NCBI GenBank assembly: GCA_033763455.1
Contig: JANRKO010000045.1
Coordinates: 1-64,000, forward strand
Source of the DNA: Polyangiaceae bacterium
GTDB taxonomy: Bacteria; Myxococcota_A; Polyangia; Polyangiales; Polyangiaceae
Direction: 5' to 3'
Length of the DNA stretch: 64,000 nt
The notes under the pieces were generated by a model, which was given only the letters and a program-made list of their open reading frames with translations, searched no databases and had not been told where the DNA came from. A program made the translations under genes and the position numbers. Positions 1-8,043 of the stretch are shown here, piece by piece (positions within the stretch are counted from its first letter, which is position 1; every line of letters starts with the position of its first letter).

Positions 1-51
1 ACCATTTGGCCAAGACCTGCGCGATGTTTCCTCCGAACGCAATTCCAATAA
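1..51 (+). CDS. possible extreme C-terminus of the intron-encoded RT/maturase (TIWPRPARCFLRTQFQ*)
   Basis: Frame 1 stops at 49-51, just before DV, where intron ORFs usually end. Only 16 codons are visible, so frame and identity are unverified. Confidence 0.3.
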   Translation, partial: TIWPRPARCFLRTQFQ

Positions 52-137
52 ACACAAACCGAAGAGCCGGATGCGGGAAATTCGCAAGTCCGGTTCTGTA
101 AGGAGCACCGGGTGGCAACACCCGGTGTTTACTTGAT
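1..137 (+). mobile_element. 3' end of a group II intron (domains V and VI); the rest lies upstream of the window
   Basis: DV at 64-96: GAGCCGGA-UGCGG-GAAAU-UCGCA-AG-UCCGGUUC, with the AGC catalytic triad (65-67) and a 2-nt bulge. DVI at 100-134: 12-bp stem GAGCACCGGGUG/CACCCGGUGUUU, GCAA tetraloop and bulged A131. Ends in AY (GAU) at 137, with the bulged A 7th from the end. Confidence 0.93.
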
Positions 138-276
138 GAGCAGCCCCCAAGATCCCCGAGCCCGTCGTCGTAAGCGCGCCCGCCGCGCCAAGAAAAACCT
201 CGAGTGGGAGATGAACCGCGAGAAAGAAAACGCGGAGTCCACCAAGCCTAAAGCCGCCGCTAAGACGGCGACTTAA
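136..276 (+). CDS. small basic protein, 46 aa (MSSPQDPRARRRKRARRAKKNLEWEMNREKENAESTKPKAAAKTAT), below the ORF-track cutoff
   Basis: ATG 136-138 to TAA 274-276; G/C-ending codons; Arg/Lys-rich N-terminal half and Ala/Lys tail; followed by a terminator-like hairpin. Confidence 0.7.
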   Translation: MSSPQDPRARRRKRARRAKKNLEWEMNREKENAESTKPKAAAKTAT

Positions 277-322: not shown

Positions 323-357
323 CCCGCGCTGTGCTCCCCGCAGCGGGATCCTTTTGT
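323..357 (+). terminator. putative intrinsic terminator after the small ORF
   Basis: CCCGC(G)CTGTG/CGCAGCGGG stem followed by ATCCTTTTGT. Confidence 0.45.
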
Positions 358-396
358 CGGTCTAGCGGGTCCCGGGGGACTAGTTGTGGGATTTTC

Positions 397-422
397 GGAG
401 TACTTGGCATGCCAAGTACTCC
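397..422. promoter_or_regulatory. perfect 26-bp palindrome upstream of clpS (operator or hairpin)
   Basis: GGAGTACTTGGCA|TGCCAAGTACTCC is its own reverse complement; followed by ACCTTTTT. Confidence 0.55.
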
Positions 423-556
423 ACCTTTTTGTCGAGCGCCTAGGAGGACACAACAAAGCCTCCGCGCGGCGGCGGGTACTGGGTCGCCTCCGGGCGAGGT
501 GTGTCCCGGCGCCCCCCCCTCGACAACAAGGGCACAAGTCACAACAATTTGGTTGG

Positions 557-901
557 ATGGCAGTGAGCAAGCCTGGGGGCACCCCCAAGGAAGACGACGG
601 CCTGGCCGTCGCGGACAAACCGAAGACCGAGCGGCCCCGCCGCTACCAGGTGGTCTTGCACAACGACGACTACACCACCATGGAGTTCGTGGTGCACGTG
701 CTGACGAAGTTCTTTCACCTCAGCGACACCGAAGCCACCTCCATCATGCTCCAAGTTCACCACAAGGGTTACGGCATTGTCGGCCTCTTCACTCGTGACG
801 TCGCCGAGACCAAAGCTTCGCAAGTGATGGAGTACGCGAAGGAACATGGGCATCCGCTGAAGTGTACGGCGGAGCCGGAAGGGTTGGGCGATTCCGAGTG
901 A
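557..901 (+). CDS. clpS: ATP-dependent Clp protease adaptor ClpS
   Basis: YQVVLHNDDYTTMEFVV and MLQVHHKG motifs; stop overlaps the clpA start (GTGA); start set at ATG 557. Confidence 0.97.
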   Translation: MAVSKPGGTPKEDDGLAVADKPKTERPRRYQVVLHNDDYTTMEFVVHVLTKFFHLSDTEATSIMLQVHHKGYGIVGLFTRDVAETKASQVMEYAKEHGHPLKCTAEPEGLGDSE

Positions 902-3153
902 AAGTCAGCGCTGAAGTTGAGATTGCGTGTTCCCTTGCACACCGTGAGGCCCAGCGTCGGCGCCACGATACGCTCACGGTGGAGCACCTCCTCTACGCAC
1001 TCCTGCACGACGAGGCCACAGCTCGGGTGTTGCGAAAGTCAGGGGCTAACCTCGAGAAGATCCGAAAGGAGCTGGAGCGGGTCTTTGATCAAGAGTTCAC
1101 ATCCGTGCCGGGCACCGAAGAAGTGCACCCCGAACCTTCTCGCGGTTTTCAGCGTGTCCTCCAACGCGCCGCAATTCACGTCGAATCCAGCGGAAAAGAA
1201 GAACTCCGCGGCTACAACGTGATGATCGCTATCTTCGCCGAAGTGGAGTCGATGGCCGTGCACGCCCTCAATCAAGCGGGCGTTACGCGTTATGATCTTG
1301 TCAATTTCGTCTCCCACGGCGTAGCGAAAGACGCCGGAGATGAAGGCGCTGATGCTCCCACTGAATCAGGATCCGAGGCCGCGGGAGAGGAGCCCGAGCC
1401 GGAGCCCAACCCGCTTGAGCGCTTTGCCTCCAACCTGAATGAAAGAGCCCTCGCCGGAGAAATTGAGCCACTCGTTGGGCGGGAAAAGGAATTGCGACGC
1501 GCCATCCAGGTGTTAGCTCGTCGCCGCAAGAACAATCCCATATTCGTTGGGGATTCCGGGGTCGGGAAAACTGCCATTGTAGAGGGGCTCGCGGCGAAGA
1601 TTGCGGCGGGACAGGTGCCAGCTCCACTAAGAGACGCCGTGATCTACGCACTCGACATGGGCAGTTTGGTGGCCGGCACAAAATTCCGGGGGGATTTTGA
1701 GAACCGCGTGAAGGCGATCTTGAAGCAACTAGAAAAGGTGCCTGGCTCCATCCTCTTCGTGGATGAAATGCACACCATCGTGGGTGCGGGCGCTGCCAGC
1801 GGTGGCAGCTTAGACGCGGCGAACCTGCTCAAGCCCTCCCTTTCCAGCGGCAAGCTGCGCTGCATAGGCGCCACTACGTTCGAGGAGTACCGCAGCCATA
1901 TGGAGCGCGACCGCGCTCTCGCTCGGCGTTTCCAGAAGATCGAAGTACTCGAACCCTCGCTTGAGGAAGCCGTTCTGATCCTCAAGGGCCTGAAGGCCAA
2001 GTATGAAGAGTTCCACAAGGTCACGTTTACGGACGCGGCGCTTGAGGCCGCGGTGAACCTCGCCGCCCGTCATCTTCACGACCGGAAGATGCCAGATAAG
2101 GCCGTCGATTTGATGGACGAAGCTGGAGCTGACGCGAAGCTCGAAGCTGGGGACGGAGCAGTTGTAGATGTGGATCGCATCGAGGCGGTTCTAGCGCGGA
2201 TGGCGCAGATCCCGCCCAAGCAGGTTTCAAGTTCGGACAAGAGCTCGCTCAAAAGCCTCGAATCTGATCTTAAGAAGGCTGTCTTCGGTCAAGACCGAGC
2301 ACTGCAGGAGCTCGCTACCGCTATCAAGCTGTCACGGGCCGGCCTTCGTCCTGCAGAAAAGCCCATAGGGTCCTACCTATTCACGGGTCCTACCGGAGTC
2401 GGGAAAACGGAGGCCGCGCGGCAGCTCGCCAAGACGCTCGGCATCGAACTCGTGCGCTTCGACATGAGCGAGTACATGGAGCGGCACACTGTGTCTCGCC
2501 TGCTGGGGGCACCGCCAGGCTACGTCGGATACGATCGCGGCGGCCTCCTCACCGAAGCCATCGCGAAAACGCCCCACTGTGTGCTGTTACTGGATGAAAT
2601 CGAAAAGGCGCATCCCGACGTTTTCAACGTACTCCTGCAGGTGATGGATCACGGGACGCTCACCGATAGCAACGGAAAAAAGAGTGACTTTCGTCATGTG
2701 GTCTTGATCATGACGAGCAATGTGGGGGCCCAAGATCTACAGCGGCGCGTGCTCGGTTTTGGCGAGCGAAAGAGCGCCGGGCGAGAAGAAGTCGCCATGA
2801 AGAACACGTTCAGCCCAGAGTTTCGCAACCGTCTAGACGCTCGAATCTCGTTCGATCCGCTCTCTCCGGAAGTGATGGAGAAGGTCGTTTCCAAGTTCAT
2901 GAGGGAGCTTGATGAGCAGCTCAAGGAGCGCCAAGTTACGATCAGCCTCACTGACAAGGCGCTCACGTATCTAGCGGACAAGGGCTACGATAAGGACAAC
3001 GGCGCCCGTCCATTAGCACGCTTAATTCAAGACGAAGTGAAGCGCCCGCTGAGCGATGAGCTGTTATTCGGAGCCCTTGAAAAAGGGGGCCACGTTGCGG
3101 TGGACTTCCGCGATGGAAAGCTCGTATTCGACATCCGCGCCCACTCGGAATAA
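898..3153 (+). CDS. clpA: ATP-dependent Clp protease ATP-binding subunit ClpA
   Basis: Clp N-domain (EHLLYALL), two AAA+ modules (GDSGVGKT, GPTGVGKT), RFDMSEYME, GARPL; directly after clpS. Confidence 0.97.
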   Translation: MKVSAEVEIACSLAHREAQRRRHDTLTVEHLLYALLHDEATARVLRKSGANLEKIRKELERVFDQEFTSVPGTEEVHPEPSRGFQRVLQRAAIHVESSGKEELRGYNVMIAIFAEVESMAVHALNQAGVTRYDLVNFVSHGVAKDAGDEGADAPTESGSEAAGEEPEPEPNPLERFASNLNERALAGEIEPLVGREKELRRAIQVLARRRKNNPIFVGDSGVGKTAIVEGLAAKIAAGQVPAPLRDAVIYALDMGSLVAGTKFRGDFENRVKAILKQLEKVPGSILFVDEMHTIVGAGAASGGSLDAANLLKPSLSSGKLRCIGATTFEEYRSHMERDRALARRFQKIEVLEPSLEEAVLILKGLKAKYEEFHKVTFTDAALEAAVNLAARHLHDRKMPDKAVDLMDEAGADAKLEAGDGAVVDVDRIEAVLARMAQIPPKQVSSSDKSSLKSLESDLKKAVFGQDRALQELATAIKLSRAGLRPAEKPIGSYLFTGPTGVGKTEAARQLAKTLGIELVRFDMSEYMERHTVSRLLGAPPGYVGYDRGGLLTEAIAKTPHCVLLLDEIEKAHPDVFNVLLQVMDHGTLTDSNGKKSDFRHVVLIMTSNVGAQDLQRRVLGFGERKSAGREEVAMKNTFSPEFRNRLDARISFDPLSPEVMEKVVSKFMRELDEQLKERQVTISLTDKALTYLADKGYDKDNGARPLARLIQDEVKRPLSDELLFGALEKGGHVAVDFRDGKLVFDIRAHSE

Positions 3154-5729: not shown

Positions 5730-6389
5730 TCAACCAGCCTGCTCAAGACCCTGGAGGTTCACCTTCTGCCGATTTGCGACAACAAGGTTCAGAACCTGAA
5801 CGGAAGCCTCATTGATATCGTCTTCCAGTGATTGAGTCTTACCGTTGAGAATAGCGAAGCCGACAAGGGCCAAGATAGCGGCGATAAGGCCGAAGGCAGT
5901 GCAGTTCATAGCTTCCGAAATACCCTCAGCAAGAATTCGAGCTTTCTGGCTAGGATCGATCGCCTCACCACCGACGGCGCCGAATGCCTTGATTAGGCCG
6001 ACGATGGTGCCGAACAGACCGGAAAGCATCGCGAGGTTGGCGAATAGAGCCAGGTACCCAGTGCGCCTGTTGATCTTCGGCATCTCTCGGAGGGCCGACT
6101 CATCCATGGCCGACTGAACTTCGTCGTCCGGGCGATTCACTTTCACGAGGCCAGCCTGAACGATTCTAGCGAGCGGTGCGTTCGCAGCCGAGCACATCTT
6201 GACCGCCTTAGCCACGTCTCCGGCGAGGATGCACTTCTGCATGGTTGCCAAGAAAACATCCTTGTTGATGGAAGCTCCGAACAAGTAGACGGAACGCTCT
6301 GCAATGACCGCAATCGAGCAGATCAACCAAAAGAGGATGATCCACATTGCCCAACCGCCTGCCTCGTAGTGATGCCAAAGTGACGACAT
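5730..6389 (-). CDS. aglR: MotA/TolQ/ExbB proton-channel protein, AglR-like
   Basis: IAERS, GLFGTIVGLI and GISEAMNCTAFGL motifs; leads two ExbD-like genes. Confidence 0.8.
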   Translation of the reverse strand: MSSLWHHYEAGGWAMWIILFWLICSIAVIAERSVYLFGASINKDVFLATMQKCILAGDVAKAVKMCSAANAPLARIVQAGLVKVNRPDDEVQSAMDESALREMPKINRRTGYLALFANLAMLSGLFGTIVGLIKAFGAVGGEAIDPSQKARILAEGISEAMNCTAFGLIAAILALVGFAILNGKTQSLEDDINEASVQVLNLVVANRQKVNLQGLEQAG

Positions 6390-6541
6390 TAGTTACTTAC
6401 CTTCCGGCTGAAGCCTGGTGCTCTTGAAGTGCTTGGTACTGAGCTCGCCCCGTGTTTGGGTGCTAGCCCGAAGTACCTAATGGAGATGTTTGAGGTTCAA
6501 CTCTTACTCGTGATCCTGCATGGTACACGGAAGAGGGGTGC

Positions 6542-6571
6542 ATCTTGCTGAAAGCCCCCGGGTTCCGTCAA
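6542..6571 (-). promoter_or_regulatory. candidate sigma70-type promoter for aglRQS
   Basis: Minus strand TTGACG-N18-CAAGAT, about 150 bp upstream of the aglR ATG. Confidence 0.4.
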
Positions 6572-7266
6572 GGAGAGAATGCAGCGGCGCGACAGTTCGT
6601 ATGCTGCAGGAACTTTCCTCCGCTGGTATTCTGCGGAGAGGGGCTATCCGCCTTCGAGGTGCGGTGAACAGGGTGGTCTTCCCTGCAGGTTTCTGCAGAC
6701 TAAGAAGCCGCAGGGTCAGTTGCTCCGTCAGGCTGTGCGACTTTCGCCTTCATCCTCGTACACGCACTTACTTCCACCAACTGGCCTGACCCTGCCTAAC
6801 CCTCCACGGGTTTCGGTCGGAGCCCCGAGGGTGCGGCTCCGAGGCCACGCCCCACAAGTGAGACCCAGGTGCGCTAGCCGGCCATCTGGAGCATGCGAAG
6901 GCTCGTCCTGCGATCCACGCCGCGAGCCGACCGATGACGCGCGATCTAGAACGAGCATCGGTTCACGCCGCGCATTCATTCATGAGTACATGAGTACGCC
7001 TCCAAGCCGGTGCCGAGAGGGTTGTACCGTTTAGCGCTCCCGCACTCGAATGTCATCGCAGCGAGCGGCTGCGTTCGGCTTATGGAAGCAACAAAAATCT
7101 TCTTCTTTATTTGCGCCCATGAATGGCGACCAAAGGAGGGAGGCACGGTCGAAAAGAAGCGTGTTTATTCGAGGTTTCTCAAACATTATACGGAACTTAA
7201 AAACGGCCGCTCATTCGGCCTAAATGATTTGCGCGTACGGACTAATGTTTTCCAACAAATGCCCGC

Positions 7267-7296
7267 TTGCAGAAGCGAAATGCCCGCGGCTATAGT
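7267..7296 (+). promoter_or_regulatory. candidate sigma70-type promoter for the second motor operon
   Basis: TTGCAG-N18-TATAGT, preceded by an AT-rich tract, 87 bp upstream of ATG 7384. Confidence 0.45.
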
Positions 7297-7383
7297 CCTG
7301 GGCTAGTCTCAAACACAATTGTTCCGCATGAGCGACGTCACAAGTAGTCGACCTAGTGGATGTAGCAGAAAGGGCGATGGGGA

Positions 7384-8043
7384 ATGCAGCTCCTCCTAGT
7401 TGCAGCTGAAGGCCAGCTGATCGAAGCATTCAAACACAACCCGACCTTCATGGTCCTCAATCTCATCACGTCCGCCATCGTTTTGACGATCGTGGTTGAG
7501 AGGTTTATCTTCCAATCCAGCCGTTATCGGGTAAATTCCAAGGAATTTTTCGCGCAGGTGAAGAAATTGGTGGCCGCGGGCAATATCGATCGCGCCATTA
7601 AGCTGTGTGAAGCGAGCGATTATCCGATTCTGCAGCTTGTAAAGGCGGGCCTTACGCACGCCAACAAGGGTGCAGACGAGGTAGATGCCGCACTCAGCGA
7701 AAAGCTCGGAGAGCTCAAGCCTCAAGCTGAGAAGCGGATCGGGGCCCTCTGGTCCTTAGCAAACATCGCAACCCTCATTGGGCTACTGGGCACTGTTTCC
7801 GGTCTGATCGCAACCTTTGCAGCCATCGCGGCGCCAGGCCTGAACCAGGCCGATAAGCAGTCGATGCTTTCAAACGGTATCGCTGAAGCGATGTATAATA
7901 CGGCGCTCGGTCTGGGTATCGCCGTGTTTTGCATGATAACCCACGTGATACTTCACACGCGCGCGAAGAACATCCAGCACGATCTGGAGAGCACTGTGGA
8001 ACGCACTTTCAACCTGCTCACTATCCAACGCGCCGGCCAGTAA
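7384..8043 (+). CDS. MotA/TolQ/ExbB proton-channel protein (AglR paralog)
   Basis: IVVERF, GLLGTVSGLI and GIAEAMYNTALGL motifs. Confidence 0.93.
   Translation: MQLLLVAAEGQLIEAFKHNPTFMVLNLITSAIVLTIVVERFIFQSSRYRVNSKEFFAQVKKLVAAGNIDRAIKLCEASDYPILQLVKAGLTHANKGADEVDAALSEKLGELKPQAEKRIGALWSLANIATLIGLLGTVSGLIATFAAIAAPGLNQADKQSMLSNGIAEAMYNTALGLGIAVFCMITHVILHTRAKNIQHDLESTVERTFNLLTIQRAGQ

Follow-up and report, generated by a model that had tools for sequence, protein, structure and literature searches.

A group II intron probably inserted within the start codon of a small conserved gene upstream of clpS-clpA in a Polyangiaceae genome

Results

Organization of the locus

We analyzed a 64,000-nt stretch of DNA from a Polyangiaceae bacterium (hereafter, the window). 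The window opens inside a group II intron, of which the last 137 nt are visible; the 5' exon and at least the first two-thirds of the intron precede the window. The intron end is followed, on the same strand, by a gene for a 46-amino acid (aa) protein, by clpS and by a gene of the clpA type. The features of this region are as follows:

1-61, plus strand: intron sequence 5' of domain V, comprising the 3' side of domain IV and the J4/5 junction
62-137, plus strand: group II intron domains V (DV, 64-96) and VI (DVI, 99-135), with branch A131 and the predicted 3' splice site after U137 (RF00029 match and MFE fold)
100-105, plus strand: AAGGAG, located 30 nt upstream of the ATG within the 5' arm of the DVI helix (fold)
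136-138, plus strand: ATG consisting of the terminal AU of the intron and the first exon base, G; equals the native start of the intron-free alleles L001, L002 and L003
136-276, plus strand: conserved gene for a 46-aa Arg/Lys-rich protein of no named family, with a predicted single helix (residues 7-36) (homologues, selection and model)
327-422, plus strand: a pair of terminator-like hairpins, each with a T-run, at 327-345 and 397-422 in the spacer that separates clpS from the small gene
520-548, plus strand: promoter-like site TCGACA-17-AACAAT, which stops 8 nt short of the clpS ATG and is conserved in L001 (793-821)
557-901, plus strand: clpS (Pfam ClpS, E = 2.5e-36)
898-3153, plus strand: clpA-type AAA+ gene, with a putative GTG start at 898 that overlaps the clpS stop (start at 862 in the ORF list)

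The 3' end of a group II intron

The intron was identified by a match to the Rfam family RF00029 (Intron_gpII) at 62-137 on the plus strand, which covers the full model (positions 1-77 of 77) and scores 54.1 bits against a gathering score of 40 (E = 3.6e-9 in a 3-kb search and 7.6e-8 for the whole 64 kb). This is the only gathering-level match in the entire 64 kb, and no second copy of the intron was found by Rfam within the window. Both hairpins are present in the MFE fold. The hairpin at 64-96 has the features of the 34-nt domain V, with the AGC triad at 65-67 and a 2-nt bulge. Domain VI combines a GCAA loop with an unpaired branch adenosine, A131, located 6 nt before the intron end (position -7), and a terminal AY, here AU at 136-137, in the intron terminus ...CUUGAU that ends at 137. 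An initial annotation, made from the sequence alone, had described a canonical DV/DVI ending with a bulged A131 before CUUGAU, and the Rfam match and the fold agree with it. The last two columns of the RF00029 model align to A136 and U137, and the ATG at 136-138 thus spans the predicted 3' splice site.

In the 61 nt that precede domain V, frame 1 ends with TAA at 49-51 and may encode the 16 C-terminal residues of the intron's own protein. A Bradyrhizobium intron whose DV/DVI resembles that of the window has an annotated RT gene that terminates 15 nt upstream of the equivalent of window position 61; the putative 16-residue C-terminus in the window showed no recognizable similarity to the end of the Bradyrhizobium RT. 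The TAA at 49-51 is in the same frame as the small gene, and this frame is open from 52 to 276, a coincidence that is probably meaningless.

A family of small basic proteins

The ATG composed of the intron's terminal AT and the first exon base was initially proposed to open a 46-aa frame missed by the ORF track. A frame of 46 codons does extend from the ATG at 136-138 to the TAA stop at 274-276, and the ORF list includes it only as 112-276, starting from a GTG inside the intron. All 19 candidates retrieved in a protein search matched at E ≤ 0.01, and most of these are 45-46 aa long and share the same starting Met. The family alignment contains 17 invariant positions, including PQD, RAR, RRAKKN, W24 and PK, and the signature is complete in the window protein (P4, Q5 and D6; R8, A9 and R10; R16, R17, A18, K19, K20 and N21; W24; P38 and K39). 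Scanning genome contigs with the family alignment yielded 329 matched stretches, 86 of which encode a relative; the 80 loci that we kept all come from assemblies labelled as Polyangiaceae, Polyangiales or other Myxococcota. Read from the conserved ATG, 75 of the 81 copies (the window and the 80 loci) consist of exactly 46 codons, and the remaining six have 45 (three copies), 50, 66 and 43 codons.

We compared the 75 distinct 46-codon genes pairwise. The mean differences per site were 0.216, 0.181 and 0.494 at codon positions 1, 2 and 3, respectively, with pN/pS of 0.32 and a median dN/dS of 0.20 across the 75 genes; for the window and L001, pS was 0.40 and pN was 0.034. The codon-position pattern indicates purifying selection on the small gene. 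With homologues in 19 proteins and 80 loci and the mark of purifying selection, the unannotated Arg/Lys-rich frame is, on comparative evidence, a real gene, as had been proposed, and a conserved one. The family is narrow, with 23 representative clusters detected at E ≤ 0.001 in a profile search of the whole library. No model in Pfam or NCBIfam matches the small protein, and the protein atlas contained nothing named, the nearest clusters being unnamed proteins of 45-50 aa.

AlphaFold modeling with the family alignment predicted one helix (residues 7-36, mean pLDDT 79). A profile search of the PDB returned a sub-threshold match (E = 0.44, 14 bits, in a low-complexity basic stretch) to the arginine-rich motif of lambda N, the boxB RNA-binding peptide, which in the matched entries (28ro and 7a4j) is carried by engineered lumazine synthase cages. 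Family positions 9-30 align with this peptide without gaps, and the peptide matches seven of the family invariants, including the Trp (A9, R10, R16, R17, A18, K20 and W24). The model of the family as a helix is a further likeness to lambda N; unlike lambda N, the small protein consists of 46 aa and lacks the other regions of N. Inspection by eye of the downstream spacers of the family loci revealed no conserved hairpin target. Binding of RNA hairpins by the small protein is a plausible lead, nothing more. Of the nucleic acid-binding function initially suggested for this protein, its basic and possibly RNA-binding nature remains plausible, given the single-helix model and the sub-threshold lambda N match.

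Intron-free alleles and the split start codon

The initial annotation placed the intron inside the start codon and looked to intron-free alleles for confirmation. Such alleles are the rule: intron sequence was found upstream of the ATG in none of the 80 related loci, a blastn-short comparison of window positions 1-137 with the 80 loci yielded no match longer than 13 nt, and an RF00029 scan of 7 of the 80 loci (137 kb) produced no match. The closest loci, L001, L002 and L003, encode proteins with 96% identity to the small protein of the window; L001 and L003 share 76-81% DNA identity with the window over clpS-clpA, and the L002 contig ends before clpS. These three loci read ...CCCCCCTCATGAGCAGC... 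or, in a second excerpt, ...GCTAGAAGGCCCCCCTCATGAGCAGCCCC.... Their sequence is identical to that of the window between 136 and 188-191 and shows no relationship to it upstream of 136. Their native ATG falls at window positions 136-138, which places the intron between AT and G, provided that both the 5' exon and the part of the intron beyond the window are intact. Under this assumption, the intron almost certainly splits the start codon of the small gene, as initially proposed. Judging from the same three nearest intron-free loci, which have an ATG at the same place, this start codon is not a creation of the intron.

AT precedes the G at the intron end as well as at the native site, which leaves the breakpoint of homology uncertain by 2 nt. 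The 3' terminus of a group II intron is, as a rule, AY. This rule, together with the branch A at -7, puts the boundary after U137, between the T and the G of the native ATG: the branch A is at -7 in the reference groEL intron, too, so that an end at 137 fits, whereas an end at 135 would not. Only the AY rule and the branch-point distance exclude an insertion immediately before the ATG.

A longer upstream ORF interrupted by the intron, the case that the initial annotation named as contrary to its reading, is not indicated by the relatives. L001 and L002 carry an in-frame TAG 15 nt upstream of the ATG, with no other start codon between, and hence the intron does not break into a longer ORF; 49 of 79 loci lack any further in-frame start on the upstream side. 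Several relatives are extended at the N-terminus (P0011, P0025-P0030, P0033 and P0034). These were considered as candidates for intron read-through and rejected upon inspection by eye: the extension of P0027 matches what is normally found upstream in loci such as L034, and P0011 has no visible DV-like frame. The contigs of the nearest relatives end near the locus: those of L003 and L001 begin 14 and 584 nt upstream of the ATG, respectively, and that of L002 stops 74 nt downstream of the small gene. The window itself starts inside the intron, and such contig ends could reflect breaks in assembly where an element is repeated or variable.

Over the first 53-56 nt of the exon, the window (136-191) is identical to L001 (585-637), L002 (10001-10056) and L003 (15-70), and the next 87 nt contain 14-16 differences. 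Zero differences in this tract were observed in 4 of 932 ORF pairs of similar divergence, three of the four being those of the window with L001, L002 and L003. The tract could be a recombination (co-conversion) tract that arrived together with the intron; the usual conservation of 5' regions accounts for it equally well, and exact runs of 55-75 nt occur also at 6546-6600 and 7426-7500, close to the starts of other genes. More broadly, exact matches of 39-75 nt to L001 and L003 are found at 6309-6600 and 7257-7500, with flanks that are ~77-80% identical. They are located in and around a ~1-kb spacer between divergent ExbB/TolQ-like genes (5730-6389, minus strand, and 7384-8043, plus strand); no Rfam family or tRNA was found in the 6309-6600 and 7257-7500 regions, which may represent a conserved regulatory region or an unknown RNA.

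Neighborhood and transcription unit

The gene order is largely conserved in the family: clpS is encoded downstream of the small gene on the same strand in 65 of the 80 loci, usually 75-600 nt away, and a gene with a TPP_enzyme_C domain is located upstream, also on the same strand, in 52. By its motifs, we take the latter to be, probably, the beta subunit of 2-oxoacid:ferredoxin oxidoreductase. In three relatives, an RNase P RNA gene is present ~8-10 kb upstream of the small gene (L035, 124-506; L060, 330-712, minus strand; L078, 2103-2460).

In the window, the spacer between the small gene and clpS (277-556) is ~170 nt longer than in L001 and L003, and the extra sequence contains both terminator-like hairpins, of which the one at 397-422 is a perfect 11-bp palindrome with a T-run. 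Inspection showed hairpin-plus-T-run sequences after the small gene in many relatives. These hairpins and the separate promoter-like site of clpS argue that the small gene is a transcription unit of its own and not the first gene of clpSA; on these signals, the two look like separate transcription units. The small gene was correctly placed upstream of clpSA in the initial annotation, with clpS and clpA following it, but the putative terminators and promoter set it apart from them.

Signals upstream of the start codon

The AAGGAG motif is situated, as initially annotated, 30 nt from the ATG within the DVI stem, and its unpaired probability in a partition-function fold is 0.16-0.40, varying with the stretch folded. 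In the nearest relatives, the sole SD candidate is AGAAGG followed by 8 nt before the ATG, a weak match. An SD-like motif between -20 and -5 is absent in 55 of 77 family loci, and CTA[AG] starting between -20 and -15 is present in 34 of the 77. We scored promoter-like pairs of the form TTGACA-N16-18-TATAAT with the second hexamer ending 6-14 nt before the ATG, using a threshold of at least 7 of 12. Such pairs were found in 37 of 77 loci compared to 3.2% of 1,491 random positions from the same loci, with mean scores of 6.23 for the family and 3.52 for the controls. They end ~10 nt before the ATG of the small gene; examples among L004-L074 can be seen in the upstream 50 nt of L033, L036 and L074. 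In L001 and L002, the score is 6, and TAGAAG ends 9 nt upstream of the ATG.

The absence of SD motifs from most copies, combined with promoter-like pairs that abut the ATG, suggests mRNAs with short leaders or none. The consensus matches suggest that the small gene is often transcribed with a very short leader or no leader, and short-leader or leaderless mRNAs appear to be common at this locus, for both the small gene and clpS. The proposal that splicing rejoins the start codon to a native ribosome-binding site fares poorly here, with 55 of 77 loci lacking an SD motif and 37 of 77 having a promoter-like pair that abuts the ATG. If the window's genome has the same arrangement, with the gene's own promoter abutting the ATG, the 5' exon in transcripts from that promoter would be only a few nucleotides long, and splicing would need transcription that reads through from upstream.

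Comparison with known group II introns

Group II introns located within or next to initiation and termination codons have been assigned to a specialized IIB1 lineage, for which PMC12584367 names Michel, Costa, Doucet and Ferat (2007, Biochimie 89:542) as the source. In the passages of PMC12584367 that deal with this lineage, Avi.groEL and EcKTE56.groEL are given as examples, a large (~300-700 nt) 5'-subterminal insertion in subdomain Ia of domain I is described as a feature, and the groEL introns are placed between bases 2 and 3 of TAA; the groEL intron starts with G, and TA/A therefore becomes a TAG stop. The native ATG of L001, L002 and L003 at window positions 136-138 likewise puts the intron of the window within an initiation codon. 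Like the groEL introns as described there, it is in the sense orientation and between bases 2 and 3 of a translation-signal codon that the terminal bases of the intron rebuild; by this analogy, it is the start-codon counterpart of the groEL stop-codon geometry. It differs from the IIB1 cases in its host, a Polyangiaceae-type myxobacterium, and in its target, an unnamed 46-aa gene rather than a classical housekeeping gene. A term search of Waldern et al. (2020) yielded nothing on start codons, and among the matches listed in a search for literature on group II introns in initiation codons of housekeeping genes, nothing was relevant.

As a reference, we used the groEL intron of E. coli A37, taken by the coordinates in supplementary file 2 of PMC12584367. 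This intron contains a 555-aa RT gene, matches Rfam D1D4-7 and has the same DV/DVI geometry as the window, including the same distance from the branch point to the 3' end in DVI. The best nucleotide matches, however, are introns of Bradyrhizobium plasmids (L081 and L082), with 79-82% identity over window positions 60/61-120/123. They share with the window the YGAA junction before DV and the GGCAACACCC top of DVI, and their RT stop is close to DV, like the putative stop in the window; one of them encodes a 414-aa RT (Pfam RVT_1 only; Rfam group-II-D1D4-6). They differ from the window in that they lie in or beside IS66-family elements and not in start codons, in that their DV/DVI falls below the RF00029 cut-off and in that their RT C-termini are unlike the putative one.

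Membership of the window's intron in the IIB1 lineage, which would make its position a trait of that lineage and not a matter of chance, appears to us rather unlikely. The position between bases 2 and 3 of the initiation codon is a hallmark of the lineage, as is the corresponding position of the groEL introns in the stop codon in the account of PMC12584367, and the DVI geometry, with the branch A at -7, is that of the E. coli A37 groEL intron. However, J4/5 and the DVI loop are nearer to the Bradyrhizobium introns, a weak indication from a comparison that is limited to DV/DVI within the visible 137 nt, and the putative RT stop is 12 nt before DV compared to 45 nt in the groEL intron, which is also a weak point. 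The IIB1 lineage has an IIB1 ribozyme and a CL1 RT with an endonuclease domain; the visible 3' end in the window looks closer to the introns with short RTs.

Discussion

We consider it likely that a mobile group II intron, lying in the sense orientation, has entered the ATG of the small gene between bases 2 and 3, recently and in a lineage-specific manner, and that the small protein is produced only from spliced RNA. The target would be a free-standing small gene located between the TPP-enzyme gene and clpS-clpA in a Polyangiaceae-type genome. Because the intron ends in AU and the first exon base is G, the ATG is rebuilt at the 3' junction. Group II introns begin with G, so that the 5' junction should keep an ATG as well, behind the gene's own signals and reading into the intron. 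The 5' flank would then end ...CCCCCCTCAT, and the full intron would start with GUGYG directly after ...GCTAGAAGGCCCCCCTCAT. Since the ATG at the junction (136) lies directly against the DVI helix and lacks a ribosome-binding signal that could serve it, the protein would come only from spliced RNA; in other words, its expression probably needs splicing, as with any intron in a gene.

A different possibility, which we hold to be unlikely, is that the element is a dead or 5'-truncated intron remnant or the result of a rearrangement, with the small gene cut off and silent or decaying and the junction ATG inert. The visible part of the intron amounts to only 137 nt, the first base of the window falls within the element, as it would at an assembly break in a repeat, and isolated DV remnants of related sequence, without an annotated RT gene in the vicinity, occur on E. 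coli plasmids. Nevertheless, both domains, DV and DVI, are present in full with a score that exceeds the Rfam cut-off, and the small ORF is intact, with 2 amino-acid versus 10 silent codon changes relative to L001, although these changes possibly predate the insertion.

Improbable, finally, is the initially suggested regulated translational switch, whereby unspliced RNA would be untranslatable and splicing efficiency would set the protein level: the geometry allows it, with AUG 136 abutting the DVI helix and the sole SD-like motif within that helix, and PMC12584367, in the part concerned, reports modulation of host expression by splicing for a few bacterial introns in housekeeping genes, but nothing points to regulated splicing here, the absence of the insertion from 80 of 80 related loci argues against a conserved regulatory design, most family members (55 of 77) have no SD motif to rejoin, and a promoter-like pair ~10 nt before the ATG (37 of 77) would leave a 5' exon of a few nucleotides.

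Within the reading that we prefer, insertion of a mobile intron between bases 2 and 3 of the ATG, a more specific version is speculative: an intron from outside the IIB1 lineage would have landed independently in the start codon of a gene that has a short leader or none, an AUG would be present at either junction, and production of an N-like RNA-binding peptide would depend on splicing of transcripts that read through from upstream.

Bacterial group II introns rarely interrupt genes, and those in start and stop codons offer the best natural opportunity to study how introns pick translation signals. Insertion into a start codon has published precedent; the host lineage and the target gene are new. 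The locus described here adds the Polyangiaceae-type myxobacteria to the hosts of such introns and adds a kind of target, a tiny conserved and unannotated gene for a predicted helical, arginine-rich peptide that apparently has little or no leader. It also brings out a family of 46-aa proteins encoded beside clpS-clpA that has no name in the protein-family libraries. If the intron is unrelated to the IIB1 lineage, colonization of start codons would have arisen more than once, and if it did land independently in a gene of this type, the locus would be a natural splicing-gated small-protein gene in a bacterium.
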